DNA of 64,000 nucleotides from an uncultured Rickettsiales bacterium (GTDB lineage: Bacteria; Myxococcota_A; UBA796; UBA9615; CAYRNR01), in NCBI GenBank assembly GCA_964558555.1, contig CAZLEO010000002.1:14612-78611 (forward strand). Direction: 5' to 3'. The position numbers and the translations under genes are program-made. Below the pieces are notes generated by a model. That model was not told the origin of the DNA and did not search any database. It worked only from the letters and a program-made list of their open reading frames with translations. Shown here one piece after another: positions 13,580 through 53,200 of the stretch; within the stretch, counting starts at the first letter, position 1; the number at the start of each line of letters is the position of its first letter.

Positions 13580-13585
13580 TCCTCG

Positions 13586-14911: not shown

Positions 14912-14956
14912 TCCATTTCGGGGACTGTCGCTGAGGGCGCCGTCGGTTTATCTTCG

Positions 14957-16765
14957 GTGCAAGAAAGCAGCGCCGTGTCGACGACCATCACCCAGACTCA
15001 CGAGGGCAAGCCAGCCACGCGGGGGACCCCTGCGGCGGACCTGGAGAAGACCCACGGGTTCGAGCACGACACGCGCCAGCTCGAGGAGCGCAAGAAGTAC
15101 CGGCTGACGTCGCAGCGGATGGGGATCATCTGTGTGGCCGGCGCGATCCTGTTCCCCATCTACATCTTGCTGGACCTCGGCACGGCCGGCGGCGAGCTGG
15201 AGCGCAGCGATCTCGGCCTGATCATCGGGATGCGGCTGCTGGCGGGCCTGCTGTTCGGTGCGCTGGCGCCGCTGTTCTTCCGGCACTGGTTCAGTCCCCG
15301 GCGCCTCGGGTGGGCCGAGAACCTGTCGTTCCTGTTCGTGGGCTTCATCACGTCGTCCATCGTCGCGCTGATGTGGGACGTGGTGCCGGACTACTACATC
15401 GGCATCGGTCAGCTCATCGTGGTGCGGTGTGTGCTGCTGCCGGGTGGACCGAAGCGGGCCATCCCGATCTGCGCGGTGCTGCTCGCCTCGCTCCCGCTGA
15501 GCCTGCTGGGCTTCTACGGGCTGGACGCCGAGGTGTTCACCGGGGCGGGCGGTGAGCGGGTGATCGCGGCGCTGTCCGGGCTGGTGGGGCTCATGGCGGT
15601 GGGCATGATCGGCTCGTACGTGTACGAGCGCGCCCTGCAGGGCACCGTGCTCGCCAAGCACCAGGACCGCTACCTGCTCGAGGCGTTCCTGGGCCAGGGC
15701 GGCATGGGCGCCGTGTACCGGGCCCAGGACGTGATGCTCGGCCGGCCCTGCGCGCTGAAGGTCATCGACAAGGAGCTGTCGGACCGCCCCGAGCTGACTG
15801 CGAAGCGGTTCGTGGAGGAGGCGCGCAAGACCAGCCAGCTCAGCGGCAGCCACGTGATCGACATCTTCGACTACGGCGTGACGTTCGAGGGCCAGCTGTT
15901 CTACGCCATGGAGTACCTGCACGGCTGGGACATCTCGGACATCGTCCGCCGCAAGGGACCGATCCCCGCCGAGCGGATCATCCACCTGGGGCGTCAGGCC
16001 TGCCTGGGGCTCGGATCGGCGCACAAGGCGGGGTTGTTGCACCGGGACGTCAAGCCACCCAACCTCTTCGTCACCGAGCGGGACGAGGATCCCGACTTCC
16101 TCGTGGTGCTGGACTTCGGCCTCGTCCAGACCGCGGCCGCGGCCGCCCAGCCGCGCCCCAAGAAGGAGGAGCTGCGGGAGGTGTCTCAGGACCAGGCGCC
16201 CGCGCGGTTGACCCAGCACGGCATCCTGGTGGGCACGCCCGCGTACCTGGCCCCGGAGCAGATCGAGCGGGACGAGGCCGACGGGCGCACGGACGTGCAC
16301 GCCCTGGGGTGCGTGCTCTACTTCATGCTCACCGGGGTGGAGGCCTACACGGCCGAGAACCAGTGGGCGCTGTTCATGAAGAAGATGGAGGGGCCGCCGC
16401 CACTGGCGACCCAGCGCCGGCCCGATCTCGACATCCCCGCCGACCTGGCGGCCGTGGTGCAGCGCTGCCTCACCCTCGAGCCCGAGGATCGCTACCAGAC
16501 GATGACGCAGCTGCGCGACGCCCTGGGCGCCTGCGAGGCGGCGGACCGCTGGTCACCGACGGACGCGAGGCGTTTCTGGGATGAGTGGGGGCGGGACCTC
16601 GACGACGGCGAGACCGAGTTCCTGGACCACTCCACCGAGCACCTCGGCGGCGTGGGCGAGTGGGATCCCGACGCCTACACCCGGACCGGCCCGCTGCCGG
16701 ACAGCAACGCCTCCACCGCCACGGTCGGCCTCGGCCGCGACTGGAAGCCGGACTCGGACGACTGA
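14957..16765 (+). CDS. Ser/Thr protein kinase with N-terminal polytopic membrane domain
   Basis: Hanks kinase motifs GQGGMGAVYRA, ALKVI, HRDVKPPNLF, DFGL and GTPAYLAPE in the C-terminal half. About 6 hydrophobic helices lie in the first ~230 aa. The true start may be internal (MGIICVAG). Confidence 0.8.
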   Translation: MQESSAVSTTITQTHEGKPATRGTPAADLEKTHGFEHDTRQLEERKKYRLTSQRMGIICVAGAILFPIYILLDLGTAGGELERSDLGLIIGMRLLAGLLFGALAPLFFRHWFSPRRLGWAENLSFLFVGFITSSIVALMWDVVPDYYIGIGQLIVVRCVLLPGGPKRAIPICAVLLASLPLSLLGFYGLDAEVFTGAGGERVIAALSGLVGLMAVGMIGSYVYERALQGTVLAKHQDRYLLEAFLGQGGMGAVYRAQDVMLGRPCALKVIDKELSDRPELTAKRFVEEARKTSQLSGSHVIDIFDYGVTFEGQLFYAMEYLHGWDISDIVRRKGPIPAERIIHLGRQACLGLGSAHKAGLLHRDVKPPNLFVTERDEDPDFLVVLDFGLVQTAAAAAQPRPKKEELREVSQDQAPARLTQHGILVGTPAYLAPEQIERDEADGRTDVHALGCVLYFMLTGVEAYTAENQWALFMKKMEGPPPLATQRRPDLDIPADLAAVVQRCLTLEPEDRYQTMTQLRDALGACEAADRWSPTDARRFWDEWGRDLDDGETEFLDHSTEHLGGVGEWDPDAYTRTGPLPDSNASTATVGLGRDWKPDSDD

Positions 16766-29735: not shown

Positions 29736-30074
29736 ATGCCACCCAAGATCGACCTCGACCCCCAGCTCTTCGAGATACAGGCGGAGTTCTGCCGGATGAT
29801 GGGCAACCGCAACCGGCTGATGATCCTCCACGCCCTGCGCGAAGGAGAGATGTGCGTGTCCGATCTCACCGAGATCCTGGGCGTCTCGCAGCCGGTGGTC
29901 TCCCAGCACCTGGCAGTGCTGCGCAAGCTCGGCGTGGTCCTCATGCGCCGGGACGGCCAGCACGTCTTCTACAGCCTGTCCGACCCCAACATCTCCAGCG
30001 CGTGCGACATGATCCGCGCCATCCTGCAGCGCACCGTGCAGGCGCGCTCGGAGGTCCTGGGAGGGAACTCCTGA
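29736..30074 (+). CDS. ArsR/SmtB-family metalloregulator or redox-sensing transcriptional repressor
   Basis: Winged-HTH with the RLMILHAL...LGVSQPVVSQHLAVLRKLGVV signature. Cys at EMCVSDL (compare the ArsR ELCVCDL metalloid site) plus a C-terminal Cys89. The stop overlaps the start of the molybdoenzyme gene (TGATG). Confidence 0.85.
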   Translation: MPPKIDLDPQLFEIQAEFCRMMGNRNRLMILHALREGEMCVSDLTEILGVSQPVVSQHLAVLRKLGVVLMRRDGQHVFYSLSDPNISSACDMIRAILQRTVQARSEVLGGNS

Positions 30075-32323
30075 TGGCACCCGTCAGCCGAAGGCAATTC
30101 ATCAAGATCGGGGCCGCGTCGTCGGCCGGAGTCGCCGCGGGAGCGGCCCTGGCGCCGTCCTTGCTACGGCCCCGCCGGGCCCTGGCCGCGCACGATCCCA
30201 CGCCCGACGACGTCCAGATCAGGCACAGCTACTGTGAGATGTGCTTCTGGAAGTGCGCGGTGCGGGCGTACGTGTCCGGTGACCGCATCTGGAAGCTCGA
30301 GGGCAACCCCGCCGATCCGTTGACCCGAGGGCGGCTGTGCCCCCGCGGCACCGGCGGGATCGGCACCTACACGGATCGCGATCGTCTGCGCACCCCCCTG
30401 ATCCGCACCGAACAGCGGGGCAAGCAGGTGTTCCGCGAGGCGAGCTGGGACGAGGCGCTGGGGTACATCGCCGACAAGCTCGACCACGTGAAGAAGACGT
30501 GGGGCCCGTCGAGCGCTGCGCTCTTCTACCACGGCTCTGGCGGCGCCTACCTCAAGGAGCTGATGAAGGCCTACGGCTCGGCCAACGTGGCCGCGCCCAG
30601 CTACGCCCAGTGCCGGGGCCCGCGCGAGGCCGCGTTCCAGGTGACCTACGGCCGGGGGGTCGGCTCGCCCGAGAACACCGACATCGCCAACACCCGCTGC
30701 CTCGTGCTCATCGGCAGTCACCTCGGCGAGAACATGCACAACTCCCAGGTGCAGGAGTTCTCCCGGGCCATCGACCGCGGCGCGGACATCATCGTGGTGG
30801 ACCCGCGCTTCTCCACCGCCGCGGGCAAGGCCAGGCACTGGCTGCCCATCCGTCCGGCCACGGACGTGGCGCTGTTGCTGGCGTGGATCCACGTGATCAT
30901 CGAAGAGGAGCTGTACGACGAGCAGTACGTGGAGCGGTACACCTACGGCTTCGACCAGCTGCGGGCGGCCGTGGCCAGCAACACCCCGGAGTGGGCCTGG
31001 CCCATCACCGGCATCGAGCCGGCACAGATCCGCGAGACCGCCCGCGCCATGGGCCGCGCCGCCCCGGCCACGCTGGTGCACCCGGGCCGTCACGTCACCT
31101 GGTACGGCGACGACACCCAGCGGTCCCGCGCCGTGGCCATCCTCAACGCGCTGCTGGGCTCGTGGGGGCGTCGCGGCGGGTTCTACGAGCCGGCCAGGGC
31201 CCGGATCCCCAAGTACCCGTACGCTGACACCGAGGCCCCCGAGCACACCTGGCGCACGACCCTGGGGGGCCGGTACCCCATGGCGAACCTGGCCCTGGCC
31301 CACGAGCTGGCCGACGCGTCCACGCCGCGGCCCGTCGACGCCCCCGACACCAAGGCCTGGATCGTGTACGGCACCAACCTGTCGCTGACCCTGCCGGACT
31401 TCGGCAGCATCCAGGAGAGGATCCGCGATCTGGAGCTGCTGGCGGTGGTGGACATCCTGCCGTCCGAGATCACCGGCTGGGCCGACGTGGTGCTGCCGGA
31501 GGCCGGCTACCTCGAGCGCGGTGACGACCTGAGGCTGTCGCCGTACAAGTCCCCGTCCATCGCGCTGCGCGATCCGGTGGTTCCCCCGGTGGGCGACTCC
31601 AGGCCGGGCTGGTGGATCACCAAGCAGCTCGCCGAGAAGATGGGGCTGGGCGACCACTTCCCCTGGAACGACCTCGACGAGTACCTGCGAGCCCGCCTCG
31701 ACGGCACCGGGATCACCCTGGAGCAGCTGCGCGCCGAGGGTGTCGTGCGGCTCCCCGACCAGCCCATCTACTGGGACGAGGGCCTGGCACCGGCCTTTGC
31801 CACGCCCAGCGGCAAGATCGAGCTGTACTCGACCGCCCTGGCCGAGGCGGGCTTCGACCCCGTCCCCACCTACACCCACCACGAGCAACCCCCGCCGGGC
31901 TCGTTCCGGCTGCTGTACGGCCGCTCGCCGGTCCACACCTTCGGCCGCACCACCAACAACCCGCTGCTGCTGGAGGTGGAGGACACCAACGTGGTGTGGA
32001 TCAACGCCGACGCGGCCGCCGACCTCGGCATCGAGTACGGAGACTGGGTGACGCTGACCAACCAGGACGGGGTCACCTCCAACCGCGCCCGCGCCAAGGT
32101 CACCCAGGGCATCCGCGCCGACGCCGTGTACGTGGTCCACGGCTTCGGCCACACCAGCAAGTCGATGCGGGCGTCGTACCTCAAGGGAATCGACGACGCC
32201 GGCCTGATCACGCGGTTCAGCCGCGACCCGATCATGGGCGGCACCGGCATGCGGGGGAACTTCGTGACCGTGACCAAGGTGGACGGGCCGGCACCCGGCG
32301 CGCACGGGGAGGAGGTGGCCTGA
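30074..32323 (+). CDS. Molybdopterin oxidoreductase catalytic subunit, PsrA/PhsA-type (polysulfide/thiosulfate reductase-like), Tat-exported
   Basis: Twin-arginine signal SRRQFIKIGAASSAGVAAGAALA. N-terminal [4Fe-4S] motif CEMCFWKC...C (C-x2-C-x3-C-xn-C). 749 aa, typical of PsrA/PhsA rather than ArrA or TtrA. MGD-binding domain layout. Confidence 0.8.
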   Translation: MAPVSRRQFIKIGAASSAGVAAGAALAPSLLRPRRALAAHDPTPDDVQIRHSYCEMCFWKCAVRAYVSGDRIWKLEGNPADPLTRGRLCPRGTGGIGTYTDRDRLRTPLIRTEQRGKQVFREASWDEALGYIADKLDHVKKTWGPSSAALFYHGSGGAYLKELMKAYGSANVAAPSYAQCRGPREAAFQVTYGRGVGSPENTDIANTRCLVLIGSHLGENMHNSQVQEFSRAIDRGADIIVVDPRFSTAAGKARHWLPIRPATDVALLLAWIHVIIEEELYDEQYVERYTYGFDQLRAAVASNTPEWAWPITGIEPAQIRETARAMGRAAPATLVHPGRHVTWYGDDTQRSRAVAILNALLGSWGRRGGFYEPARARIPKYPYADTEAPEHTWRTTLGGRYPMANLALAHELADASTPRPVDAPDTKAWIVYGTNLSLTLPDFGSIQERIRDLELLAVVDILPSEITGWADVVLPEAGYLERGDDLRLSPYKSPSIALRDPVVPPVGDSRPGWWITKQLAEKMGLGDHFPWNDLDEYLRARLDGTGITLEQLRAEGVVRLPDQPIYWDEGLAPAFATPSGKIELYSTALAEAGFDPVPTYTHHEQPPPGSFRLLYGRSPVHTFGRTTNNPLLLEVEDTNVVWINADAAADLGIEYGDWVTLTNQDGVTSNRARAKVTQGIRADAVYVVHGFGHTSKSMRASYLKGIDDAGLITRFSRDPIMGGTGMRGNFVTVTKVDGPAPGAHGEEVA

Positions 32324-32862
32324 TGCCTCGCTTCGCCATGACCATGGACACGCGCAAGTGTGTGGGCTGCTCCGACTGCGTGCTCGCGTGCAAGAACGAG
32401 AACCAGTTACCCGAGGGGCTGGCCCGGGACTGGATCGTCAGGGAGACGGGCGGGCGGTTCCCCGACCTGTGGCAGGAGATCCGCTCGGAACGGTGCAATC
32501 ACTGCTCGAACGCCCCGTGCGTCCACACCTGCCCCACGGGCGCGAGCCACGTGGACCGCGACACCGGCGTGGTCCTGGTCACGCCCCACGAGTGCATCGG
32601 CTGCAAGTCGTGCATCGCCGCGTGTCCGTACGACGCGCGCTACATCCACCCCGAGGGCCACGTCAGCAAGTGCACCTTCTGCATCCACCGGACGAAGGAA
32701 GGTGAGAATCCCGCCTGCGTCTCGGTGTGTCCCACGTACTCGCTGGAGTTCGGCGATCTCGACGATCCCGACTCCGAGGTCAGCAAGCTCCTGGCAAGCC
32801 GCAAGTACAAGACCCTGCTGCCCGAGGCCGGCACCCGGCCCAACGTCTACTTCCTGGTGTGA
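32323..32862 (+). CDS. 4Fe-4S ferredoxin-type electron-transfer subunit (PsrB/PhsB/NrfC-like)
   Basis: Four Cys clusters (CVGCSDCVLAC, CNHCSNAPCVHTCP, CIGCKSCIAACP, CTFC...C). Start overlaps the upstream stop (TGATG). Confidence 0.85.
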   Translation: MPRFAMTMDTRKCVGCSDCVLACKNENQLPEGLARDWIVRETGGRFPDLWQEIRSERCNHCSNAPCVHTCPTGASHVDRDTGVVLVTPHECIGCKSCIAACPYDARYIHPEGHVSKCTFCIHRTKEGENPACVSVCPTYSLEFGDLDDPDSEVSKLLASRKYKTLLPEAGTRPNVYFLV

Positions 32863-32874
32863 GGGGATACGACG

Positions 32875-33822
32875 ATGGAACGCGAGATCGAGATCATTTC
32901 GGGTCGCATGAATCACGAGATCGACCCCCACCTGGAGATCTGGGGCTGGGAGCTGCCCGCCTACTTCTTCCTGGGGGGGCTGGCCGCGGGCGTGCTGATC
33001 CTGTCGGCCGCGCTGCTGTTGTCGGGCAAGGAGGAGCGCTACCCCGCGGCCGTTCGGTACGCGCCTCTGGTGGTCGCTCCGGCGCTGGGGCTCGGGCTGG
33101 TGCTCCTCATGCTGGACCTGAGCCATGTGTGGCACTTCTACCACCTGTTCCTCACCTTCGAGCCCACCTCGCCCATCTCCTGGGGTACGTGGTTGCTGAC
33201 CCTGGTGATGCCCTTGTCGGTGGTGTACGCCTTTGCCGTACTCCCGCGGACGGTGTTCCTCAACTGGGTGCGGATCGAGCTGCTGCTCCCCATCCACGAC
33301 CGGCTCCAGCCCATCGTCCGCCCCCTGGCCGTCGTGCTGGCCGTGCTGGCCGCCGGCGTCGGTATCTACACCGGCGTGCTGCTTTCCACGCTGCAAGCCC
33401 GGCCGTTCTGGAACTCCAACGTGCTCGGCGCCCTGTTCCTGTCGTCCGGGCTGACTGCGGGCACGTCCGTCGCGCTGCTGGTCGCCTGGCTCGAGCACGA
33501 GCGCAAGCTCCTCGCCACGGTCCTCATGGGCACCATCGGCGTGGAGCTCGTGCTGCTGCTGCTGTTCGTGCTGGGGCACGCCACCGGCGGTGAGGCCTCC
33601 CAGCAGGTGGCCCACATGCTGCTCGGGGGCGAGATGGCCCTGCACTTCCTGGTCTTCGACGTGGCCGTCGGCCTCGTCGCGCCGCTGCTGCTGCTGGTGT
33701 TCCAGCTCAGCGGCCGCGCCCGCTACACCCCCATCGCGCCGCTGCTGGCCCTGTTCGGCGGCGTGATGCTCCGTCTGACCATGGTCCACGGCGGCCAGAT
33801 CACCCAGTGGCTGCCGTACTAG
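32875..33822 (+). CDS. NrfD/PsrC-family polytopic membrane anchor (quinol-interacting subunit)
   Basis: About 8 TM helices with NrfD-family topology. Located directly downstream of the A and B subunits. Confidence 0.8.
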   Translation: MEREIEIISGRMNHEIDPHLEIWGWELPAYFFLGGLAAGVLILSAALLLSGKEERYPAAVRYAPLVVAPALGLGLVLLMLDLSHVWHFYHLFLTFEPTSPISWGTWLLTLVMPLSVVYAFAVLPRTVFLNWVRIELLLPIHDRLQPIVRPLAVVLAVLAAGVGIYTGVLLSTLQARPFWNSNVLGALFLSSGLTAGTSVALLVAWLEHERKLLATVLMGTIGVELVLLLLFVLGHATGGEASQQVAHMLLGGEMALHFLVFDVAVGLVAPLLLLVFQLSGRARYTPIAPLLALFGGVMLRLTMVHGGQITQWLPY

Positions 33823-33833
33823 GAGAGGGACGC

Positions 33834-34346
33834 ATGTCCAACGTACCCAAGCGATACGTCAACCCCTACGTCTCCGGGCTGCTGCTCGGCGTCGTGCTGT
33901 TCAGCGCCCTGTTCGTGGTGGGACGCGGCCTGGGCGCGTCGGGCGCGATGATGCGGACGGCGGCCCACGCGACCGAGATCGTCGCCCCCGAGGTCGTCGA
34001 GGCCAACGCGTACCTCGGCCGGTACGCCGAGCGGAGCCTGCTGGACGACTGGCTGTTCATCGAGATCCTCGGTGTGGCCGTGGGCGCGCTGCTCAGCGCC
34101 GCGCTGGGCCGACGGTTGAGGTGGGAGATCCTCAAGGGGCCGCGCATGAGCGGCGCCGCGCGGCTGGGGCTCGCCCTGCTCGGCGGCGGGATCTTCGGCT
34201 TCGGCGCCCGCCTCGCCCGGGGGTGTACCTCCGGGCTCGCCCTGTCCGGCGGGGCCACCCTCGCCCTGGGCTCCATGGTGGGCATGATGTGCATCTTCGC
34301 GGGCGCCTACGCGTTCGCGTACTTCTTGCGGAGGCAATGGATCTGA
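33834..34346 (+). CDS. YeeE/YedE-family sulfur-compound (thiosulfate-type) transporter, N-terminal half-size protein
   Basis: Family motif FGFGARLARGCTSGLALSGG (GC-x-SG) with ~4 TM helices. RBS AGGAGAGGG. Confidence 0.7.
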   Translation: MSNVPKRYVNPYVSGLLLGVVLFSALFVVGRGLGASGAMMRTAAHATEIVAPEVVEANAYLGRYAERSLLDDWLFIEILGVAVGALLSAALGRRLRWEILKGPRMSGAARLGLALLGGGIFGFGARLARGCTSGLALSGGATLALGSMVGMMCIFAGAYAFAYFLRRQWI

Positions 34347-34945
34347 TGGCACCTCTGGCCAAGGTAGGAGAGTGGGCGCCCCAGATCGGGCTGATCGCGG
34401 CGTTCGTGATCGGGATCGGCTTCGGCTGGGCGCTGGAGATGGGCGGGCTGGGCAACTCCCGCAAGCTCGCCTCGCAGTTCTATTTCCGCGACCTGACGGT
34501 CTTCAAGGTCATGTTCACCGGCATCGTCACGGCCATGCTGCTGATGTTCGGCGCCGGCGCCCTGGGGTGGATGGATCTGTCGCTGGTCTACCTCAACCCC
34601 ACGTTCCTGTGGCCGATGGCCATCGGCGGCTTCGTCATGGGGGCCGGCTTCGTCGTCGGCGGGTGGTGACCGGGCACCTGCGTGATCGGTGCGGTCACGG
34701 GAAAGATAGACGGTCTGATGTTCCTCGTCGGCGCCATGGGCGGCATGCTCGCCTTCGGGTTCGCTTACCCCGCCGTCGAGGGTCTGTTCATGGCCGGCGA
34801 GATCGAGGGCTCACCCACCGTCGCGTCGTGGCTCGGCGTCCGCCCGGGCGTCATCGCCCTGGGCATGACGGTGGTGGCGGTCGTCGGATTCATCGGCGCC
34901 CATTGGGCCGAAAAGCGCTTCGGAGAGGGGCCGGTACAGCCATGA
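34346..34945 (+). CDS. YeeE/YedE-family transporter second half, interrupted by an in-frame TGA at 34667-34669; either a selenocysteine recoding candidate or a pseudogene
   Basis: ORFs 34346..34669 and 34670..34945 are in the same frame with one TGA between them. Joined, they give a ~199-aa half-transporter with GFVVGGW-[TGA]-PGTCVIG. The TGA sits within one residue of the GG-C position conserved in the family. Start overlaps the upstream stop (TGATG). Confidence 0.5.
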
Positions 34946-35622
34946 GCTTCAGATGGGAGTACATCGCAGCGGGCCTCGGCCTGCTCCTCGCCGTCGGCGT
35001 GGCCTCGAGCCGGGCCGGCGTCGGTACCATGGGCGCCTGGGAAGCGGTCGGCCGCCCCGCCGAGGCCGTCCCTGCCGACGTCGTCGCCCCTGCCGACGTG
35101 CCCCCCGCGGGCGTCCCGGCTATCACCGCGGACGAGCTCGCCGCGGATCTGCTGGCCGGCGCCCCCGGCCTCACCGTGGTGGACGTGCGCGCTGCTGACG
35201 AGTCCCCGGCCGACCGCATCCCGGTCGCGTACTGGATGCCCCTCGACGACGCCGGGTGGCAGCCGCCGGGGCCGTTCCCCGAGCACCGCCGTCTCGTCCT
35301 CGTGGCCGCCGCCGCGGACACGGCCGAGGCGGCCTGGAGCCACGCGCGCGGCCTGGGCTACGAGCGCGTCGCCGTGCTGGACGGCGGTCAGGCCGCCTGG
35401 AACGCGAGGTACGGAGATCCCCAGGAGCCCGGGGCGGACGCCTCCAGGCTCGACTGGCAGGACTACCGGGCCCGACGGGCTGCCTCCCTGTACCTCACCG
35501 GGGGCTTCGGCGCCCTCGACCAGGGCGCTCCTGGCAAGGGATCGGAGCCCCCCGCTGCAGCGCCTCCCCCGCTCCCGGCGCGGCGGCTGGCCACCAGCCC
35601 CGGGTCGGGCGAGGGCTGCTGA
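34942..35622 (+). CDS. Rhodanese-homology-domain protein with no catalytic Cys (predicted inactive or regulatory), N-terminal TM anchor
   Basis: Rhodanese fold signature LTVVDVRAADE...IPVAYWMP...RRLVLVAAAADTAEAAW, with Ala in place of the active-site Cys. Start overlaps the upstream stop (ATGA). Confidence 0.6.
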   Translation: MSFRWEYIAAGLGLLLAVGVASSRAGVGTMGAWEAVGRPAEAVPADVVAPADVPPAGVPAITADELAADLLAGAPGLTVVDVRAADESPADRIPVAYWMPLDDAGWQPPGPFPEHRRLVLVAAAADTAEAAWSHARGLGYERVAVLDGGQAAWNARYGDPQEPGADASRLDWQDYRARRAASLYLTGGFGALDQGAPGKGSEPPAAAPPPLPARRLATSPGSGEGC

Positions 35623-35712: not shown

Positions 35713-36117
35713 ATGTCCACGACCGAACTCGGACACACGCTGCGATTCACCGACACCCCCTTCGACGCCGTGGTCGAGCGCACCACCGCGGCGCTGGCCG
35801 ACCAGGGATTCGGCATCATCACGGAGATCGACGTCAAGGCCACGATGAAGAAGAAGCTCGACGTCGACGGCCTGCCCTACAAGATCCTCGGCGCCTGCAA
35901 CCCCGGCTTCGCCCACAAGGCGCTGACCGCCGATCCGCAGATCGGCCTGCTGCTGCCGTGCAACGTCATCGCCTACGAGGGCGACGACGGCGCCGTCACC
36001 GTGTCCATCGTCAAGCCCGAGAAGATGTTCGAGCTCGTCGACGATCCGCGCATGGGCGAGCTGATGGGCGAGGTCTCGGAGGCGCTCGTGAAGGTCCGCG
36101 ACGCCCTCACCAGCTGA
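35713..36117 (+). CDS. DUF302-family small protein
   Basis: 134-aa protein with FGIITEIDVKATMKKKL...YKILGACNPGFAHKAL, typical of DUF302. Commonly found in sulfur-metabolism neighbourhoods. Confidence 0.6.
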   Translation: MSTTELGHTLRFTDTPFDAVVERTTAALADQGFGIITEIDVKATMKKKLDVDGLPYKILGACNPGFAHKALTADPQIGLLLPCNVIAYEGDDGAVTVSIVKPEKMFELVDDPRMGELMGEVSEALVKVRDALTS

Positions 36118-42438: not shown

Positions 42439-45400
42439 GTGCGCCGAGCTATCGCCATCGCCCTGCTGGTCCTGGTTCCCGTTGGCGCGCTCGGCCCGGT
42501 CCCGGTCACGGCGGCGCCACCCGAAATACGTGAAGAGACCATCGTGACGCGGGAGGAGGGCGTCTCCCCTGACGAGAAGTACGGGGAGGTCGCGAGCTGG
42601 TACGAACCTCTGGGTGGCCTGGGGATGGTCCTGCGCGAGATCCAGATCGATCCGTCGTCCGAGGCAGGCGCTTCCGCGACCGTCCATCCGCTGTCCGAAG
42701 AACGCGCTCGGGAGCTGCTGCAGCGCGCCGATCCCATCGACACGGGCGAGACGGTGCCGGAGCCGTTCGCCGTGCGGCAGGGGCCCCGTCCGAGATCGCA
42801 AGAGGCGGAGCGGATCGTCCTTGCGGCGGACTCGCACAGGTCCGCGTCCGTCCCGGAAGTCGAGAGAGGAACGGACGTCCTGGAGGTCGTGCGGTACGCG
42901 CCGGAGGGGGACGCGGGCCGGCCGTTCCAGGTCTCGATCGTGTTCTCGCAGCCCATGGTGGCGCTGTCGGCGGTGGAGGGAACGGACGCGGATGGGTTTG
43001 CGCGCATCGAACCCGAGATGCCCGGGCGCTGGCAGTGGCTGGGCAACCGCACGCTGGTCTTCGAGCCCGAAGGTGACTTCACGCCGGCGACGACCTTCGA
43101 CGTGACCGTGCCTGCGGGGACGCGGTCCGCATCCGGGGGCGCGCTCGCCGAGGCGCTGGAGTTCGGGTTCGAGACGGCGCCGATCGGGGTCCTGTACACG
43201 ACCCTCGAGGACGTGCTCCAGCGGCTGCAGCCCGTGGTCTTCGTCGCATTCGACCGCAAGGTGGACCGTGAGCAGATTCTGGCGCAGATGCGGCTGGAGG
43301 GAGGAATCTCTCGTCGGCTACGTCTGCTCACGGACGAGGAGAACGACGAGGTCGGGGATCAGTACGTCGACTGGTTCGACGAGAGATACGGCGCGGGCTC
43401 GTGGCTCGCCGTGAGGCCGGCCGAACCGCTGGAGCCGAATACCGGGTACAGCTTTGTGCTGGGTGACGGCGCTGGGGGAGCGGAGCAAGAACGGTTCGAA
43501 CCCTCCTCGTTCCCGTTCCGTACCTATGGGCCCTTGCGGCTCACCGGGCACGGCTGTGACTCGGGCTGGTCCAGCGATGACCTCACCGAGGAATGCGACG
43601 GTTCCGACCGGTGGGTCGCCGAGTTCGCCAACCCCCTCGAGAGGGACCAGGGGAGCGCCATCTCGGTAACGCCGGCTGACCCCGAGATGACCGTGGAGAC
43701 TGGGTGGAAAGGTGTCGAGGTACGCGGAGTCCGCGAGGCAGGTGTTCGGTACACCGTCACGATCCCCCCCGGCCTGAAGGACGTGCACGGGCAGACGCTG
43801 GGCGAGGCGGTTCAGCTCGAGTTCACGTTCGACTCGGTCCGGGACAGGAGCACGGCCCAGCTGTTCCTGCCTGGCACGGCGATGGTCGTGGCCGATCCCA
43901 CCGCGCCTCCGTGCTACGAGTTCTCCAGCACCGACCTCGAGTCCGTCCGGGTGCGGATCCACCGATCCGACGATCCAGCCGGGGATCTGACCGCGTGGGT
44001 CGAGGACTACCTGGCCACCTACGACCCCGAAGAGCCCGAACACCCCCGCCCGGGCACCCTGGTCAGCGACGAGGTCCACACCCTCGCGGGCGACGAGGGG
44101 GAGCGCGTCGAGACGCGAATCGACCTGCAGCCGTACCTGATCGATGGCCACGGGCAGTTCATCCTCTGGTTCGAGCCCGGCCGCGCGCTCGGCGGCTTCC
44201 ACTTCTCGTCGCGCCGCAGCGTCTGGGTCCAGGTGACCGACATCGGCCTGACAGCCCTCGAGTCGGGCGGGGAGCTCCTGGTCTGGGCCACCGGCCTGAC
44301 CGACGGTGCGCCCCTTCAGGACGTGGACCTGCAGCTGCTCCCGGCCGGCACGAGTCACTCCCGTACTGACGCCGAGGGCCTGGCGCGCCTCGAGATGAGC
44401 ACGAACGCCGAGGACCAGAGGTGGGTGCTGGCGCTCCGGGGTCCCGACAAGGCCCTCCTGGATTCGGGAGATCCGGTCTCTTTGTACGAGTCCGCGAAGA
44501 GCTGGCGCGCGAGCACCTGGGACGGCCGGAGCTACCGCTGGTACATCGACGATCCCCGCGGCCTGTACCGCCCCGGGGAGACCGCCCGCGTCAAGGGCTG
44601 GATCCGCGACGTGGAGCAGAGCGCCGCCGGCTTCGACCCGTGGGCTGCCGCCCCACCTCCGACGCTGGATTGGCGGCTGTACGAACCCAGCTGGCGCGCC
44701 GTCCACGAACCGTATTCCACCGTCGTGATCGCCGAGGGAACCACCGCGGTCGACGAGCTCGGCGGCTTCGACATCGCCGCTGACCTGCCCGATGACGTAT
44801 CCCACGGGTATGCGCACCTGGAGGTCTCGGTTCCGGGCGAACCGGAGACCTCGACTGCGGATCGGCGCCATGCGTTCGAGGTCGAGGAATACCGCAAGCC
44901 CCGGTTCACCGTCGGCATCTCACCGTCGCACGACACCAGCATGGCGGGCGAGGAACTCGTCTTCGACATCCGTACGACGCTGCTCACGGGCGGGGGACTC
45001 GCCGGCGCCGAGCTGTCGGGGTACGTGGACGCCTCGGTGGCATCGTTCCGGCCGCCAGGGCACGACGAGTTTCGGTTCGGTCCCTGGACGCCGTGGTGGT
45101 CCGGGAGCGTCCGGGGAGGCTTCGGCGGCCGGTACTTCTACGACGGGATCGCCGACGGACGGGGCGAGTACCGCCTGGGCGTGGAGTTCGCGTCGTCGAA
45201 TCCGCCGCGTCCGTGGCTGGTCGGCGGGGCCGTGTACGCGCGGGACCAGGCCCGTCAGCGCTGGACGGCGTACAGCGATCCCGTCCTGGTCCACCCGGCG
45301 GAGCTCTATGTCGGCCTGCGCTCGGCGAGCTCTCTCGTCCGCGCTGGCGAGCCCTTCGACGTCGAGGCGCTGGTCGTGGACCTTCGGGGAGAGGTGGTCC

Positions 45401-48400
45401 ATGACGCGGACGTCCGCATGACCCTGGTCCAGCAGAAGGGGTGGTCGGTCGTCGATGGGCACCACGTCATGGAGGAGGCCGATGTCGGCGAGTGCAGCCT
45501 GATCGCCGGCGCGGCGTCCAGGTCCTGCCGTTTCGAGGTCGACGAGGCCGGCCGCTACCGGGTCGTCGCCCGTATCGCCGATGCGGCGAACCGGCCCAAC
45601 CAGACGGACTTGTACCTCTGGATCGCGGAGGCCGACGATGATGGCGGGGGGACCGGCCGGTGGTCCAGGCTGGCCGTGGAGGGCCTCGAGCTGGTCCCGG
45701 GCACCCAGGACGTCCAGCCCGGTGACACGCTCGAGCTGCTGGTGCGATCCCCGGTCTACCCATCGACCGGCCTGCTGACCACGTCGATCCACGGGATCGT
45801 CCTGCGCACCGAGCTGTTCAGAATGGACGGTCCGACGGCGACCCTGCGGATCCCGATCGTCGAGGCTCACGTGCCCCTGGTCCAGATCGGCGTTTTTGTC
45901 GTGGCGGCCGAGGGAGGCGGTTCCGCAGGTGGTCCGGGGCGAGCCGAACCGCGCTGGCCGTCGTCCCGCAAGGCTGCCGTGAACCTCTCCGTCCCGCCCC
46001 TCGACCGCGCCCTGGAGGTGAGCGTCGAGCCGGACGCGGCCGACCTGCAACCGGGCGACGAGACACCCCTGAGGGTCCGGGTGGCCGACAGCTCGGGCGC
46101 TCCCGTCCAGGGTGCCCAGGTGACGCTGGCCGTGGTGGACGAAGCCATCCTGCAGCTCTCCGACCACGAGTGGCTCGATCCCTTGTGGTTCTTCTACGAA
46201 CCCGCGTACGGCCACTGGCTCGACTACCGGCACCAGTTCGTCGGCCCCTACCCGGGCGTCTGGACCGGCCGGGACCTCCGCAACACGGTCCTGCTGGCTA
46301 CCCCGCCCCAAGGCCAGGCCGATGGGCCCGGGAACGCCGAGCAAACTCTCCGGGGAACCGGGCGCCATCCCCGATACCGGCCGTGGGATTGGGTCGCCGG
46401 AGATCCCTTCTCCAACATGAGCCGCGATATCCCTCCCGGCGTTCCGAGACCGATCCCCTCGCGCAAGGACTTCGGCCCCCTCGCCCTGTTCGAACCGGCG
46501 GTCCTCACCGACGCCGACGGCCGCGCCGTCGTGCCCCTGCACGCGCCCGGATCGCTGACCCGCTACCGGATCACCGCCCTGGCCGCCACCCGCGACCAGT
46601 TCGGACTCGCCGAGTCCTCGATCACGGCCCGACGCCCGCTCATGGTCCGGCCCTCGCCGCCGCGATTCCTCAACGTCGGGGACCGCTGCGAGTTGCCGTT
46701 GCTGGTGGAGAATCGCACCGACCTGTCCCTGAACGTGGAGCTGGCCGTACAGGCCCTCAATGCCGATCTCGGGAACGACGACGGGTACTCTTCCGATCCG
46801 GTCGGCCGCGAACTCGTTCTTCCTCCCCGCACCCAGGTCGAGGTCCGCATCCCGGTGGCATCCAGGCTCCCCGGACAGGCCCGGTTCCAGGTGGTGGCTT
46901 CGTCAGACGACTTCACCGACGCCGTCGTCTTCGACGTCCCCGTGTGGACCCCCGCGGCGGCCGAGGAGGTCGCGGTCTACGGAACGCTCGAGGCCGGCGC
47001 GGTCGCCGTCCCGGTGCGCGCCCCGCCCGACGTCTGGACCGAGGCAGGTGGACTGCAGGTCGACCTGTACGCCTCCAGGCTGCAGGGGCTCGCCGATGCC
47101 GGGCACTACCTCGAGCGCTACGTCCCCAGCTGCAGCGAGCAGGTGGCATCGCGGATCCTGGCCCAGCTCGCGCTCGGGGACACGTTCGGCCCGACAGGGG
47201 ATGGCAGCGCGACACAGCGCAGGGATCGCAGGCGCGCAATCGAGGCGGATCTGTTCCTGCTCGAGGGGCGGCAGTCCCACGATGGGGGGTTCTACACGTG
47301 GCACTCCTCCAGGCGCGCCTCACCGTTCGTCAGCGTCCACGTGATCCACGCACTGGTCCTTGCCCGCACGGCTGGATTCCAGATCCGCGACGAGGTGATG
47401 GACGAAGCCGATGTCTACCTCGGCGGCCTCGCCGCGAACCTCGACGAGGGCTACCCCGTGGACGCCGCCCGGTCGATCCGGGCCTACGCCCTGTACGTCC
47501 GCCATCTCATGGGCGATGACGATGTGGACGCTGCACGCACGCTCGTCGCCGAGGCCGACGACGGTCAGCTCCCCCTCGAAGCCCAGGGCTGGCTCCTGCG
47601 CGTGCTGGCCGCGGGCGGGACCGAGGCCGACACGGTCCCGCTGGAGCGCAGCATTGCCGCCAGCGTCACCGAGACCGCTGCCGGCGCCCACTTCGTCACC
47701 TCCTACGGCCCAGGAGATCCCCTGCTCCTGCACTCGGACCATCGCGCCGATGCCGTGATCCTCGCCGCGCTGCTCGAAGTCGGCTCCCACGACGACCTGG
47801 TCGCCAAGCTGGCCCACGAGCTCCTCGCCAACCGTAGCGACGGCCACTGGACCAACACCCTTGAGACCGCCCTCGCCGTCGTGGCCCTCGCCCGGTATGC
47901 CGAGGTCCACGAGAGCCGCCGGCCGCGTGTCGACGCCGAGGTCTGGCTCGGCGACGCGTACGCTGGGCGCCACTCCTTCCGCACGCGCGATGCACCCCCG
48001 TCCCGCATCCACGTTCCCATGGACCACCTCGCCAACCTCGACGGCGGCCGCGACCTCGTGCTCTCACGCAAGGGCCGCGGTCCGCTGTACTACCGTGTCG
48101 GCCTGGACTACGTCCCCCGATCCCCCGACCTCCCCGCCCTCGACCGCGGCTTCGTCCTGCAGCGCCACTACCAGGCCGTGGACGATCCCGACGACGTGTG
48201 GCGCGACGACCAGGGCGCCTGGCACATCCGCGCCGGCGCCCGCGTCGAGGTCGTCGTCACCGTGCAGGTCTCTGACGAGCGCCACCACGTCTCCATCGTC
48301 GACCCCCTCCCCGCCGGCCTGGAGTTCGCCAGCGACACCGTCGCCGGCAACCAGTTCCTCAGCGACTCGGCCGACCTCCACGCCCCCGGCTGGCACGCGT

Positions 48401-48606
48401 TCCTCGATCACTACATGACCATGGACCGTCGCGACGAGCGCACCGACGTCTTCGCGTCGCTGCTCCGCGAGGGCATCCACACCCTTCGCTACGAGGTCCA
48501 GGCCACCACCCCGGGCGAGTTCGTCGCCCCTCCGACGCGGGCCGAGGAGATGTACCACCCCGAGACCTTTGGGCGGAGCGCGACGGATCGGGTGATGGTG
48601 GAGTGA
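42439..48606 (+). CDS. Alpha-2-macroglobulin-family giant protein (2055 aa) with candidate thioester motif CSEQ
   Basis: Signal peptide MRRAIAIALLVLVPVGALG. Thioester-domain-like RYVPSCSEQVASRIL (compare the A2M PYGCGEQ motif). C-terminal signature GEFVAPPTRAEEMYHPETFGRS. The size and layout resemble bacterial A2M/YfhM-like proteins. Confidence 0.7.
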   Translation: MRRAIAIALLVLVPVGALGPVPVTAAPPEIREETIVTREEGVSPDEKYGEVASWYEPLGGLGMVLREIQIDPSSEAGASATVHPLSEERARELLQRADPIDTGETVPEPFAVRQGPRPRSQEAERIVLAADSHRSASVPEVERGTDVLEVVRYAPEGDAGRPFQVSIVFSQPMVALSAVEGTDADGFARIEPEMPGRWQWLGNRTLVFEPEGDFTPATTFDVTVPAGTRSASGGALAEALEFGFETAPIGVLYTTLEDVLQRLQPVVFVAFDRKVDREQILAQMRLEGGISRRLRLLTDEENDEVGDQYVDWFDERYGAGSWLAVRPAEPLEPNTGYSFVLGDGAGGAEQERFEPSSFPFRTYGPLRLTGHGCDSGWSSDDLTEECDGSDRWVAEFANPLERDQGSAISVTPADPEMTVETGWKGVEVRGVREAGVRYTVTIPPGLKDVHGQTLGEAVQLEFTFDSVRDRSTAQLFLPGTAMVVADPTAPPCYEFSSTDLESVRVRIHRSDDPAGDLTAWVEDYLATYDPEEPEHPRPGTLVSDEVHTLAGDEGERVETRIDLQPYLIDGHGQFILWFEPGRALGGFHFSSRRSVWVQVTDIGLTALESGGELLVWATGLTDGAPLQDVDLQLLPAGTSHSRTDAEGLARLEMSTNAEDQRWVLALRGPDKALLDSGDPVSLYESAKSWRASTWDGRSYRWYIDDPRGLYRPGETARVKGWIRDVEQSAAGFDPWAAAPPPTLDWRLYEPSWRAVHEPYSTVVIAEGTTAVDELGGFDIAADLPDDVSHGYAHLEVSVPGEPETSTADRRHAFEVEEYRKPRFTVGISPSHDTSMAGEELVFDIRTTLLTGGGLAGAELSGYVDASVASFRPPGHDEFRFGPWTPWWSGSVRGGFGGRYFYDGIADGRGEYRLGVEFASSNPPRPWLVGGAVYARDQARQRWTAYSDPVLVHPAELYVGLRSASSLVRAGEPFDVEALVVDLRGEVVHDADVRMTLVQQKGWSVVDGHHVMEEADVGECSLIAGAASRSCRFEVDEAGRYRVVARIADAANRPNQTDLYLWIAEADDDGGGTGRWSRLAVEGLELVPGTQDVQPGDTLELLVRSPVYPSTGLLTTSIHGIVLRTELFRMDGPTATLRIPIVEAHVPLVQIGVFVVAAEGGGSAGGPGRAEPRWPSSRKAAVNLSVPPLDRALEVSVEPDAADLQPGDETPLRVRVADSSGAPVQGAQVTLAVVDEAILQLSDHEWLDPLWFFYEPAYGHWLDYRHQFVGPYPGVWTGRDLRNTVLLATPPQGQADGPGNAEQTLRGTGRHPRYRPWDWVAGDPFSNMSRDIPPGVPRPIPSRKDFGPLALFEPAVLTDADGRAVVPLHAPGSLTRYRITALAATRDQFGLAESSITARRPLMVRPSPPRFLNVGDRCELPLLVENRTDLSLNVELAVQALNADLGNDDGYSSDPVGRELVLPPRTQVEVRIPVASRLPGQARFQVVASSDDFTDAVVFDVPVWTPAAAEEVAVYGTLEAGAVAVPVRAPPDVWTEAGGLQVDLYASRLQGLADAGHYLERYVPSCSEQVASRILAQLALGDTFGPTGDGSATQRRDRRRAIEADLFLLEGRQSHDGGFYTWHSSRRASPFVSVHVIHALVLARTAGFQIRDEVMDEADVYLGGLAANLDEGYPVDAARSIRAYALYVRHLMGDDDVDAARTLVAEADDGQLPLEAQGWLLRVLAAGGTEADTVPLERSIAASVTETAAGAHFVTSYGPGDPLLLHSDHRADAVILAALLEVGSHDDLVAKLAHELLANRSDGHWTNTLETALAVVALARYAEVHESRRPRVDAEVWLGDAYAGRHSFRTRDAPPSRIHVPMDHLANLDGGRDLVLSRKGRGPLYYRVGLDYVPRSPDLPALDRGFVLQRHYQAVDDPDDVWRDDQGAWHIRAGARVEVVVTVQVSDERHHVSIVDPLPAGLEFASDTVAGNQFLSDSADLHAPGWHAFLDHYMTMDRRDERTDVFASLLREGIHTLRYEVQATTPGEFVAPPTRAEEMYHPETFGRSATDRVMVE

Positions 48607-50248: not shown

Positions 50249-53200
50249 GTGACCGCGTGGGGGCGGACGTTCTGGGAAGTCGATCTGGTGATCGTTCGTA
50301 AGGCGATTCTGCTGCTCCTGGTCCTTGGATCGTGCTCCTCGCCTGGTCGGGCCGAGGGGAGCGACGACGAGCGGTTGCGGATCATCGTTCGCGAAGTCCA
50401 GCACCAGGCGACACAGACGCCCGAAGGGGGCGGAGCTGTCGGTCGGCCCCTCACCGCGGAGGAGATCGAGGCGCTGCTGGGGAGAGTGGAGCCCCTGCCC
50501 GCTGTTCCGACGGCCGACGCGTCGTTCACGGTGCTCGGATCGAGGGCTCGTCCGCGGGGGACCGACGCCGCCGTCGACGCGCCGTTCCCGCCGGCGAGGG
50601 GGCAGCGCGCCGAGGTCCCGCACGCCGATGGTGCGGAGGAGTCGGGCGTACTGGAGGTCCTGCGGTTCGCGCCGGACGGGGTGGTGGACCGCGAAGCGGT
50701 GGTGTCCGTCACGTTCTCGCAGCCCATGGTCGGGGTGGGGGAGCAGGCGCGAGTGGGAATCCCAACGCCTGCTCGCCTGGAGCCCGAGCTCCCGGGGACC
50801 TGGCAGTGGTTGGGGACCCGGACGCTGGTCTTCGAGCCCGCGGAGTCGCTCCCACCGGCCAGCCGGTTCGAGGTCACCGTGCCCGCCTCGACGCAGTCGA
50901 TGCGCGGCGAGGAGCTCGCCGAAGATGTGACGTTCGGCTTCTCGACGCCGCCCCCACGGCTGCGCTCCGGGTCCCCGACCGGCACCGTGCAGGATCGATC
51001 TCCGGTCGTCTTCCTCGTCTTCGATCAGGTCGTGGTCGGGTCCCAGGCCGCAGAGCGGATCGAGCTGGTGGGAGAACGGAGCCACGAGCTGCGACCGGCC
51101 ACCACGGAGGAGATCCGCCAGGAGGAGGAGCCTGACTGGTTCGACAGACGCTACGGTGCCGGCCGCTGGATCGCGCTCGAGCCCGTCGAGCCCCTGCCCC
51201 TCGCCACCGAGTTCAAGGTGACGGTGGCGCCGGTGCCCGGCGTGCCGGACGCACCCCTGCGTGAGCGAGAGGACGACTCGTTCACGTTCACCACGTTCGG
51301 GCCGCTGGAGATCGTGGCCCACCACGGGATGTACGAGTCCGAGTCGTCGGCCTGCCCGGTGGTATCACCGTGGGAGATCGTCCTGAACAACCCCCTCGAT
51401 CCCGACCGGCCGCCCACGGTCTCAGTGCGCCCGGAGCTGCCCGGACTCGAGATCACCGTCGAGGGGAACAAGCTGATCGTCGACGGTGAGCGGGACCGCG
51501 AGACGACCTACACCGTCACCGTCCACGGGGGGCTGCGCGACGTCCACGGCCAGACGCTGGGACGTTCCAGGCAGGTGGTGTTCCGGACCATCCCCTCGCG
51601 GCGGTACCTCGCCGGCCCGCGCGGCGAGCTGATCACCCTGGATCCCGCGGGCCCTGCGACCGTCCCCGTGTACACGGTCAACCACGACTCTCTGAGGGTG
51701 CGCATCCACCGCGTGGACGACGTGATGGGCGACTGGGAGACCTGGCTGCGCTTCTTTCATACGACAGCTCATCCCCGCCAGTGGGACGACCGCCCCCCAC
51801 TGCCTCCCCTGCCGGGGACGGTCCTGTTCGACGCCGAGGTGGACATCGTGGGTGCCCTGGATGATCTCGCCGAGACGCCCGTGGACCTGTCGCCGTACCT
51901 GGTCGATGGCCACGGGCAGTTCATGCTCTGGATCGAACCGACGGACCAGGATGAGTCGTCGCGGAGGATCGACGAGGTGGTCGCCTGGGTCCAGGTCACC
52001 GATCTCGGGCTGACCGCATTCAGCGACCAGGACCAGTTGTTGATCTGGGTCACCGACCTGGCGACAGGGCAGCCGCTGGAGGGCGTGCCGGTCGATCTCC
52101 TCCCCGGAGCCGAGCCGGGGGTTCCGAGCGATGCCGCGGGATGGGTCCGGATCGAGCGGCCCGGTCTGGAGAAGTTGGCCGTGGCGCGGCGCGGTACGGA
52201 CGTGGCGATCCTGCCCGAATTCGACATGTCCTGGACCGATCACTGCCACTGGCACCGGTATTACGACCGCCCCCCTCGGCAGATCTGGTTCGTGATGGAC
52301 GACCGGGGACTGTACCGACCGGGTGAGACCGTCCATCTCAAGGGATGGCTGCGGAACAGGAACCGGGAGACCGACGAGGTCACGCCGCGTATCGAGGGTC
52401 TGCCCGAGGAGGTCCAGTGGCGATTGTGGCAGCCCACGGCGTACGGGGACGACCCGCCCGCCGATCTGGCCAGAGGTGACGCCGCGGTCGGCGATCTGGG
52501 TGGCTTCTCCGTGGAGCTCGAGCTGCCGGCGGACATGGAGCCGGGAGACGCGCACCTGACGTTCTGGCCGGCGGGAGTGGAGAACCCCGGCTGGGCCGAA
52601 CGGCATGTCCACGATTTCCGCGTCGAGGCGATGCGGAATCCAGAGTTCACCGTCGCCCTGTCGGCCGGTCCCGGCCCTGTGGTGGCGGGGGAAGAGGTCG
52701 TCGTCGGTGCGACCACGTCGTACTTCAGCGGGGGCGGCCTCCCGGGCGCGTACACCTATTGGCGGCTGACCGCGCGGGGCACCCGCTATCACCCACCGGG
52801 CCACGAAGACTATGGATTCGGTTTCACCCAGCTGGGGCGCGTGGACGGACCCAGCATGGGATTCCTGGGATCGAAGGGTCTGAGTGGCCGGACCGATGCG
52901 GCGGGTGAGCACCAGATCGCCGTATCGCTGGCCGACCTCGATCCGATGGTGCCGGTCGCCGTCGAGGTGCAGGTGACCGTCGCCGACGTGAACCGCCAGC
53001 GGTGGGCCGCCACGGAGCGCCTGGTCGTGCATCCGGCGCAGCTGTACGTGGGGCTGAAGCCGGTGCGCGACGTCGTCGTCGAGGGCGAGCCCGTCGAGCT
53101 GGACGTGATCGTGGTGGACCTGGACGGAGTCCCGGTCCCCGGCATCGACGTCGAGCTGAGCATGGCCCGGCGCCAGTGGAAGATCAGCGACGGTCGCCGG

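Follow-up and report, generated by a model that had tools for sequence, protein, structure and literature searches.

Within a 64-kb stretch of contig CAZLEO010000002.1 from an uncultured bacterium (64,000 nucleotides, referred to here as the window), a gene of the YeeE/YedE family of sulfur transporters is interrupted by one in-frame TGA codon that is probably read as selenocysteine (Sec) at an essential cysteine of the transport channel, so that two annotated reading frames would make up a single, real selenoprotein gene; we put the probability of this reading at about 0.88. The gene, designated half B, lies at 34346..34945 on the forward strand and is PmpB-like, and a second half-size member of the same family, half A, is encoded directly upstream. 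The UGA codon at 34667..34669, on the same strand, coincides with the invariant cysteine column of the motif GGY-C-PGT (the equivalent of Cys91 in TsuA), it is kept in orthologs, the codons downstream of it are under purifying selection, and it is followed by a hairpin of the type known as the bacterial selenocysteine insertion sequence (SECIS). A replacement of Cys by Sec at the marker cysteine of the family had been the leading proposal of an initial annotation made from the DNA letters, and it is supported by the cysteine column, by Sec-type orthologs and by independent assemblies.

Half B forms a single frame of 199 codons, the predicted Sec codon included, and its sole interruption is the TGA that separates 34346..34666 from 34670..34945. 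The coordinates, the frame and the joined length of about 199 residues that the initial annotation gave for two same-frame reading frames parted only by this codon are confirmed. The peptide around the interruption reads GFVVGGW-TGA-PGTCVIG, with the downstream stretch PGTCVIGAVTGK, and in the records examined the gene is annotated as two ‘hypothetical proteins’ of 107 and 87 amino acids. With a cysteine placed at the TGA, the translation scores 39.7 bits on the Pfam family PF04143 (Sulf_transp), for which the gathering score is 27, over model positions 11-155 of 310, while half A (33834..34346, forward strand, 170 amino acids, PmpA-like) matches the same family at 70.8 bits over positions 174-309 and corresponds to the C-terminal half of full-length transporters. 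These positions on the model indicate that the two genes encode the C-half and the N-half of one transporter, in that order; the earlier statement that half B matches its neighbour is corrected in that the halves, although both pass PF04143, are not equivalent copies of each other. The start of half B overlaps the stop of half A by one base (TGATG) and its stop overlaps the start of a rhodanese-like gene (ATGA), overlaps which point to translational coupling of the three genes. When the full window was scanned for internal TGA codons flanked on both sides by coding-type GC content at third codon positions, only the TGA of half B was returned besides the ordinary boundaries of adjacent genes; elsewhere TGA serves as a normal stop, ending 15 of the 19 confidently placed genes of the window, among them both transporter halves and the rhodanese-like gene.

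The most direct evidence for the identity of the missing residue comes from homologs. A search with half B yielded about 1,170 of them, the full-length ones being about 199 amino acids long, and in alignments of 21 and then 61 full-length sequences the TGA column was occupied by cysteine in every case (61/61), with C-P-G-T invariant and G-G-Y preceding it. The initial annotation had located the codon at or near the marker cysteine of the family, and had proposed such an alignment as a check; the placement can now be sharpened to the exact column. When a profile of the half B family was compared with the Protein Data Bank (PDB), the cysteine of this column fell on Cys91 of TsuA/YeeE (6LEO, E = 8.7e-4), a match that was reached by the family profile only, since a phmmer search of the PDB with the half B sequence gave none. 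The complementary residue resides in half A, where the motif ARGCTSG (Cys codon 34224-34226) aligns with AGGCNIG of PDB entries 8k1r, 8j4c and 6leo and is equivalent to TsuA Cys293; this codon specifies cysteine in 101 of 101 copies among the fetched loci and is never replaced. Both conserved channel cysteines of the YeeE/YedE family are therefore represented, that of position 91 as the Sec column and that of position 293 in half A, in a split layout of the PmpA/PmpB type that consists of one N-half gene and one C-half gene with one conserved Cys or Sec each. The equivalent of TsuA Cys22 is missing from the window proteins, as it is from PmpAB; the window has Asn in its place. The functional importance of these positions has been established in full-length transporters: the C91A and C293A variants of S. 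thermophila TsuA/YeeE fail to complement, and in E. coli YeeE all three conserved cysteines are essential and serine is no substitute (Tanaka et al., PMC7449682). For the split proteins, in which PmpB is the N-half with the Cys91 equivalent and PmpA the C-half with the Cys293 equivalent, a heterodimer has been proposed (Li et al., PMC11582611).

The TGA is neither confined to one assembly nor to one lineage. The identical TGA-containing sequence was found in at least six independent assemblies, and the same TGA, with the same split into products of 107 and 87 amino acids, recurs in independent assemblies from JGI, ENA and Logan that derive from different samples. Nine distinct truncated products (107/110 amino acids) fall into one 90% cluster, and all end in ...GGW. 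In all, the codon is kept in 10 distinct sequences (L001, L002, L009, L019, L020, L021, L023, L030, L083 and L126), so that the Sec-type orthologs whose presence the initial annotation suggested looking for exist in related as well as in unrelated genomes. Six DNA variants at 90-92% identity all carry the TGA, and their variable sites 3' of it are distributed as 36/10/6 over codon positions 3/1/2. Among species-representative genomes it is present in L019 (77% identity, GGW-TGA-PGTC) and in L020, L021 and L023 (72%, 71% and 70%, GGY-TGA-PGT[SA]), and L022 (69% identity, same operon) has TGC in its place; these closest metagenome-assembled genomes, L019-L023, have GC contents of 66-72%, and that of the window lineage is 69%. 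With such a composition the title ‘uncultured Rickettsiales bacterium’ that these genomes bear is implausible and looks unreliable, and NadA homologs were uninformative on the taxonomic position of the lineage, the best named matches being Burkholderiales at about 68%. Three distant lineages of low GC content, L030 (46%, titled Lentisphaeria), L083 (42%) and L126 (37%), have TGA at the same codon, and in each the frame continues past it and is still homologous. The ratio of nonsynonymous to synonymous substitution rates (dN/dS) is 0.06-0.35 on the 3' side of the TGA versus 0.19-0.57 on its 5' side, at synonymous divergences (dS) of up to 0.82. Ahead of the first possible restart codon, the TGA is followed by four codons that encode P-G-T-x throughout and differ by synonymous changes. 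Sec forms are nevertheless a small minority of the family as sampled in metagenomes, with TGA in 1 of 80 loci versus TGC or TGT in 74, the other five having Cys on inspection.

The forms of the window and L019 differ from the others in the residues next to this position. They read GGW-U-PGT-C, with Trp at -1 (34664-34666) and Cys at +4 (34679-34681), and in all other forms the Cys or Sec is preceded by Y or F and position +4 is occupied by S, A or G. The additional cysteine could serve in the resolution of a selenenylsulfide. One further sequence with a TGA, L127, was not counted as a Sec form. It is a short, low-GC contig in which GGY-TGA is followed by an apparent 1-nt deletion (479-560) that shifts the homologous frame TGTALVGCSTGRIDG; a strong hairpin, CUGGUUGG-GUGU-UCAACCGG, lies 19 nt 3' of its TGA, and the sequence is either a Sec form with a sequencing error or a true pseudogene.

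In bacteria the SECIS element is expected as a hairpin shortly downstream of the UGA, and the published consensus (review, PMC13188914) calls for a loop of 3-9 nt that starts with G followed by G or U, a stem of 4-16 bp, a distance of 16-37 nt from the UGA and a folding energy of -7.5 kcal/mol or lower. These criteria were applied in an implementation of our own, not with bSECISearch. A hairpin at 34681..34699 on the forward strand, CGUGAUCG-GUG-CGGUCACG, agrees with every one of them and is predicted to be the SECIS element of half B: it starts 12 nt 3' of the UGA, has a stem of 8 bp and an energy of -9.0 kcal/mol, and places its loop 19 nt from the UGA as G23, U24 and G25, counting the U of the UGA as 1. 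In the high-GC clade, represented by eight sequences, the alignment has 98.2% of its cells paired, with compensatory exchanges at pairs 15-33 (CG/GC) and 19-29 (AU/GC/GU); the observed covariation was reached by 5 of 500 shuffles, and slid registers were all paired at 45% or less. Covariation in such a small and related sample supports the structure, which is backed but not proven by it. Hairpins also follow the UGA at 18-20 nt in the distant lineages, as GGUGGC-GGUC-GCCACC in L030, AGUAGC-AGGU-GCUACU in L083 and UUGCC-GGUCU-GGCAA in L126. Taken over all sequences, a qualifying hairpin is present in 9 of the 10 distinct Sec forms, always at a spacing of 18-20 nt, versus 6 of 77 Cys forms, three of them at similar spacing (Fisher p = 9e-8, uncorrected for phylogeny). 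A scan of the window at Rfam gathering scores gave no matches, a result that is uninformative on bacterial SECIS elements.

The initial annotation had drawn attention to another structure, a hairpin at 34666-34698 in which the UGA itself is embedded, and had remarked that its geometry is not canonical for a SECIS. This hairpin does exist in the window, but it is broken in the orthologs L020, L021 and L023, where pairs 3-29, 4-28, 9-25 and 12-22 are lost; 85% of its cells are paired, it shows no covariation, and 392 of 500 shuffles are as good. It was rejected as the SECIS candidate. The two hairpins are mutually exclusive, and the supported element, that at 34681-34699, is a separate, downstream one with canonical geometry. 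Its placement matches that of the minimal SECIS of E. coli fdhF. With the fdhF-type element and the bSECISearch consensus it has in common a hairpin just 3' of the UGA within the coding region, a stem-loop of about 17-19 nt that begins 11-12 nt past the UGA, and G23 and U24 in the apical loop; it differs from the fdhF element in that the loop is a GUG triloop (or a GGUGC pentaloop) and that there is no bulged U, and SelB binding is putative.

Several observations weigh against Sec decoding. No selA, selB or selD gene is found among the approximately 30 Pfam-annotated open reading frames of the window, ARAGORN detects no tRNA, and hence no tRNA-Sec, in the window and ten related loci, and the approximately 10 kb beyond either end of the window contain neither sel genes nor further TGA-interrupted genes. 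The span covered by the search for sel genes amounts to about 85 kb, window and flanks together; the flanks are occupied by an HdrA-like/NrfD cluster, PFOR, rubrerythrins and regulators. With respect to the hairpin, the covariation comes from eight related sequences and its shuffle count is not a probability, the L083 hairpin reaches only -6.5 kcal/mol, and the region as a whole folds no better than its shuffled versions (z = -1.63, matched by 13 of 200). Moreover, the Cys form L022 (925-980) folds at the same place, as GGUGGUGG-CCG-CCACCACC, a consequence of its self-complementary Val-Val-Ala-Ala-Thr-Thr codons. Since codons for Val (GUN) can pair with those for Thr (ACN), part of the hairpin may simply follow from the protein that is encoded. 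The tightest pairing of L022 has a CCG loop that lacks the required leading G, and it is through a fold with a shorter stem and a GGCCGCC loop that this sequence is among the six qualifying Cys forms. Its hairpin may be either a relic of a SECIS or a pre-adaptation, in which case the site may have been pre-adapted by the coding sequence itself.

What else could place a TGA at this codon? Under one scenario half B lost its function through a nonsense mutation and what is left of the gene is decaying, a view that would accord with the split of half B by gene callers into two ‘hypothetical proteins’ and with the lack of Sec machinery nearby. A decaying gene is very improbable, however, given that the TGA has been kept over the synonymous divergence noted above with low dN/dS downstream, that several unrelated lineages carry it at precisely the same invariant Cys codon, and that the coupling to both flanking genes has been kept. 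It is exceedingly improbable that a true TGC or TGT was misread as TGA: metagenome assemblies do carry a general prior of errors, and L127 appears frameshifted directly after its TGA, but the identical codon is present in independent JGI, ENA and Logan assemblies of different samples and in 10 distinct sequences. Nonsense mutation and assembly error were the two alternatives named in the initial annotation, and both are ruled out by the conservation of the TGA, the independent assemblies and the selection seen downstream of it. The chance that the organism has a reassigned code in which TGA means Trp or Gly is likewise negligible; some uncultured lineages do reassign this codon, but here it ends 15 of the 19 well-supported genes, occurs internally once in 64 kb, and stands in a column in which homologs have Cys and not Trp or Gly.

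Genuine termination, or occasional suppression of it, is the remaining possibility and an unlikely one. The locus would then encode half A, an N-terminal fragment of 107 amino acids and a C-terminal fragment of 87 amino acids restarted at GTG 34682, or else the UGA would be read through by a near-cognate tRNA for Trp, Cys or Arg. A GTG does lie 12 nt 3' of the TGA and is used by gene callers, and the insertion of Sec is itself a conclusion from sequence comparison. Yet the codons from the TGA to this GTG encode the invariant P-G-T and vary only synonymously, and a restart at the GTG would delete P-G-T and interrupt the channel loop at the very residue on which it depends; L020, L021 and L023, moreover, read P-G-T-(S/A)-V-V after GGY-TGA in the same frame. 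Neither termination nor readthrough predicts that a stop should fall exactly on the invariant Cys and be accompanied, in every lineage, by a SECIS-type hairpin at the canonical distance.

If the UGA is decoded as Sec, the following mechanism can be proposed. The frame at 34346..34945 would be translated into one membrane protein of 199 residues, with the hairpin at 34681-34699 recruiting SelB that carries Sec-tRNA(Sec). By analogy with its homologs, half B, the PmpB-like N-half, would pair with half A, the C-half, as a heterodimer, and the paired halves would rebuild a pseudo-symmetric channel of the TsuA type in which Sec at the Cys91 position and Cys (ARGCTSG) at the Cys293 position would both be located at the constriction. 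The homologs also suggest that such a channel most likely moves reduced sulfur species, in the form of thiosulfate or of sulfane or polysulfide sulfur, across the membrane. The sulfur might then be handed to the C-terminal tail cysteine of the rhodanese-like partner, which would play a role like that of TsuB/YeeD.

The partner just mentioned, encoded at 34942..35622 on the forward strand (Pfam Rhodanese, 226 amino acids), is a membrane-anchored protein whose anchor is N-terminal and whose rhodanese-like domain lacks the catalytic Cys (LVLVAAAADTAEAAW). Its tail is conserved as ...PPPLPVR..GPKxAEGC, with ...ADGGC in L083, among the orthologs compared (L002 10597-11259; L019, L021, L022 and L023; L083 2155-2778). 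In the window the terminal ...EGC is followed by TGA, and this codon was considered as a second Sec site and rejected, as orthologs have TAG or TAA in this position; since the stops of the orthologs vary among TGA, TAG and TAA, the cysteine is the true last residue. The protein probably acts as the partner of the channel and accepts its sulfur.

A different picture emerges in a more distant subfamily in which the rhodanese-like domain is fused to half B (L027, L030, L031, L119, L097 and L123). Two of the fused proteins (L097, L123) end in ...GGCG-stop and four (L027, L030, L031, L119) in ...GGG-TGA-GGC-stop, the TGA being at about 11207 in L027, at 11252-11254 in L030, at about 11252 in L031 and at about 4207 in L119. 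Each of the four TGA tails has a hairpin of 5-6 bp 18-19 nt downstream, with loops GGU, GUU, AGUU and GUU and stems that covary (ACCGCC/GGCGGU, ACCGUC/GACGGU, GCCGC/GCGGC and GCUGUC/GACAGC), and no such hairpin follows the Cys tails of L097 and L123. The TGA tails look like a second Sec site, at the penultimate residue, and L030 would have two Sec residues, one in the channel and one in the tail. The pairing of Cys and Sec tails with covarying hairpins suggests that YeeE/rhodanese-like systems recruit Sec recurrently; this predicted second site indicates that Sec is decoded in organisms that have such systems, and it marks the tail cysteine as functionally important. The ...GGG-U-G tail is reminiscent of GCUG, the tail of the thioredoxin reductase of animals, and no report of it was found in the literature, the coverage of which was incomplete.

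These tails permit a more tentative suggestion, namely that the Cys91-equivalent of the channel and the tail cysteine of the partner have each been replaced by Sec independently in different lineages, with L030 having both; we regard this as possible but doubtful. Were it true, the chalcogen would be moved by a covalent thiol/selenol relay, with transient S-S or Se-S intermediates from channel to tail, and YeeE/PmpAB-type channels would operate by such a relay and not by the hydrogen-bond guidance that has been proposed for TsuA. The Psr/Phs-linked subfamily could then handle selenium species, and the ...GGG-U-G tail would constitute a separate, apparently uncatalogued bacterial selenoprotein motif. 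The natural placement of Sec at the position that is essential as Cys91 in TsuA and, in other lineages, at the tail cysteine of the partner argues that these residues act as nucleophiles and not only as hydrogen-bond donors.

The transporter halves are part of a gene cluster on the forward strand that begins with a regulator of the ArsR type (29736..30074, 112 amino acids; Pfam helix-turn-helix families HTH_5 and HTH_20 on identical contigs). Its cysteines lie in EMCVSDL and SACDM, and it resembles the persulfide-sensing repressors of the BigR/SqrR/SoxR type, with a putative role as a sulfur-responsive repressor. There follow the catalytic subunit of a PhsA/PsrA-like molybdopterin oxidoreductase with a TAT signal (30074..32323; Pfam Molybdopterin, Molybdop_Fe4S4, Molydop_binding and TAT_signal), for which the top NCBIfam match is thiosulfate reductase PhsA at 486.7 bits, under the cutoff of 694; a 4Fe-4S ferredoxin subunit of the PsrB/PhsB type (32323..32862; Pfam Fer4_11 and related, NCBIfam NrfC-, ArrB-, DsrO- and TtrB-like); and an NrfD/PsrC-type membrane anchor (32875..33822; Pfam NrfD, E = 1.1e-45). 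Next come the two transporter halves and the rhodanese-like gene, three coupled genes that stand behind a periplasmic molybdoenzyme of the Phs/Psr type, and then a DUF302 protein (35713..36117; Pfam DUF302). All close relatives keep the order from the regulator to the rhodanese-like gene, and L083 also has an NrfD gene, both halves (with Sec in half B) and a rhodanese-like gene. The DUF302 neighbour is conserved on the related metagenome contigs L006-L016 (about 90% DNA identity or higher), where it lies downstream of the cluster either directly or after an insertion, and it is uncertain whether it is part of the system; in L006-L009 (approximately 11396-16038) genes for a Rieske protein and a cytochrome b, together with a gene of 1157 amino acids, are inserted between it and the rhodanese-like gene, an insertion that the window version of the cluster does not have.

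Elsewhere in the window two very large genes, at 42439-48606 (2055 amino acids) and 50249-56260 (2003 amino acids), encode alpha-2-macroglobulin-like proteins (Pfam bMG3, A2M and bMG10), and the lineage also has sigma-54 activators and Ser/Thr kinases. A second NrfD-type gene at 62926-63993 runs off the right end (L041 1361-8632), and the cluster to the right of the window comprises an HdrA/MvhD(FlpD)-like flavoprotein of 752 amino acids, Fe-S proteins and rubrerythrins, with no in-frame TGA seen. HdrA and MvhD are selenoproteins in some organisms.

The occurrence of Sec in the YeeE/YedE family is not new. Sec-containing members of PF04143 have already been catalogued, with the motif GUxSG and WP_012471001.1 as an example (PMC13188914, PMC9312934); the main text of the 2008 and 2016 source papers behind the selenoprotein catalogues does not name the family. 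The catalogued proteins share with half B the Pfam family and a single Sec in place of the conserved cysteine of a channel motif, and they too have been predicted by Cys/Sec homology only. Half B does not have the GUxSG motif; it reads GGW-U-PGTC and its relatives GG[YF]-U-PGT[SAG], so that, compared by motif, its G[WYF]-U-PGT(C/S/A) marks a different subfamily, and it is a half-transporter of 199 residues beside a separate second half. Nothing specific on Sec in PmpB, DUF395 or half-size YeeE proteins was found in the literature, again with incomplete coverage, and no NCBIfam model matches half B.

Among characterized relatives, the TsuA(YeeE)-TsuB(YeeD) system (PDB 6LEO, 6LEP and 8J4C; PMC7449682, PMC11073785) differs in that TsuA is a single chain of nine helices with three cysteines, and the window chain is split; its partner TsuB is TusA-like, unlike the membrane-anchored rhodanese-like domain with a C-terminal Cys that is found here. 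With the TsuA equivalog models NF052577 and NF041049, half A reaches 41 bits (cutoff 400) and 16 bits (cutoff 645), respectively, far too little in either case, and half B matches neither. YedE/FdhT (NF033796; Lin et al. 2015, PMC5322559) belongs to the same superfamily and provides a link to selenium handling, being a proposed selenium transporter that is not reported there as a selenoprotein; half A matches it weakly (E = 2.4e-6), its 27 bits lying an order of magnitude below the cutoff of 350.

The closest counterpart in layout is provided by PmpA/PmpB of Serratia and others (PMC11582611), which have the same two-gene arrangement of N-half and C-half with the Cys91 and Cys293 equivalents. 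Compared with these, the window halves are longer (170 and 199 amino acids versus about 130), the Cys91 equivalent is predicted to be Sec, and the genes sit in a molybdoenzyme cluster of the Phs/Psr type together with a rhodanese-like partner. The gene would link a Phs/Psr-type sulfur respiration cluster to selenium dependence. As the split annotation and the lack of an NCBIfam model will extend to its relatives, the inventories of transporters and selenoproteomes for these marine and sediment lineages are undercounted. Half B is a further, mis-annotated member of the Sec-containing YeeE/YedE family, of the split PmpB type.

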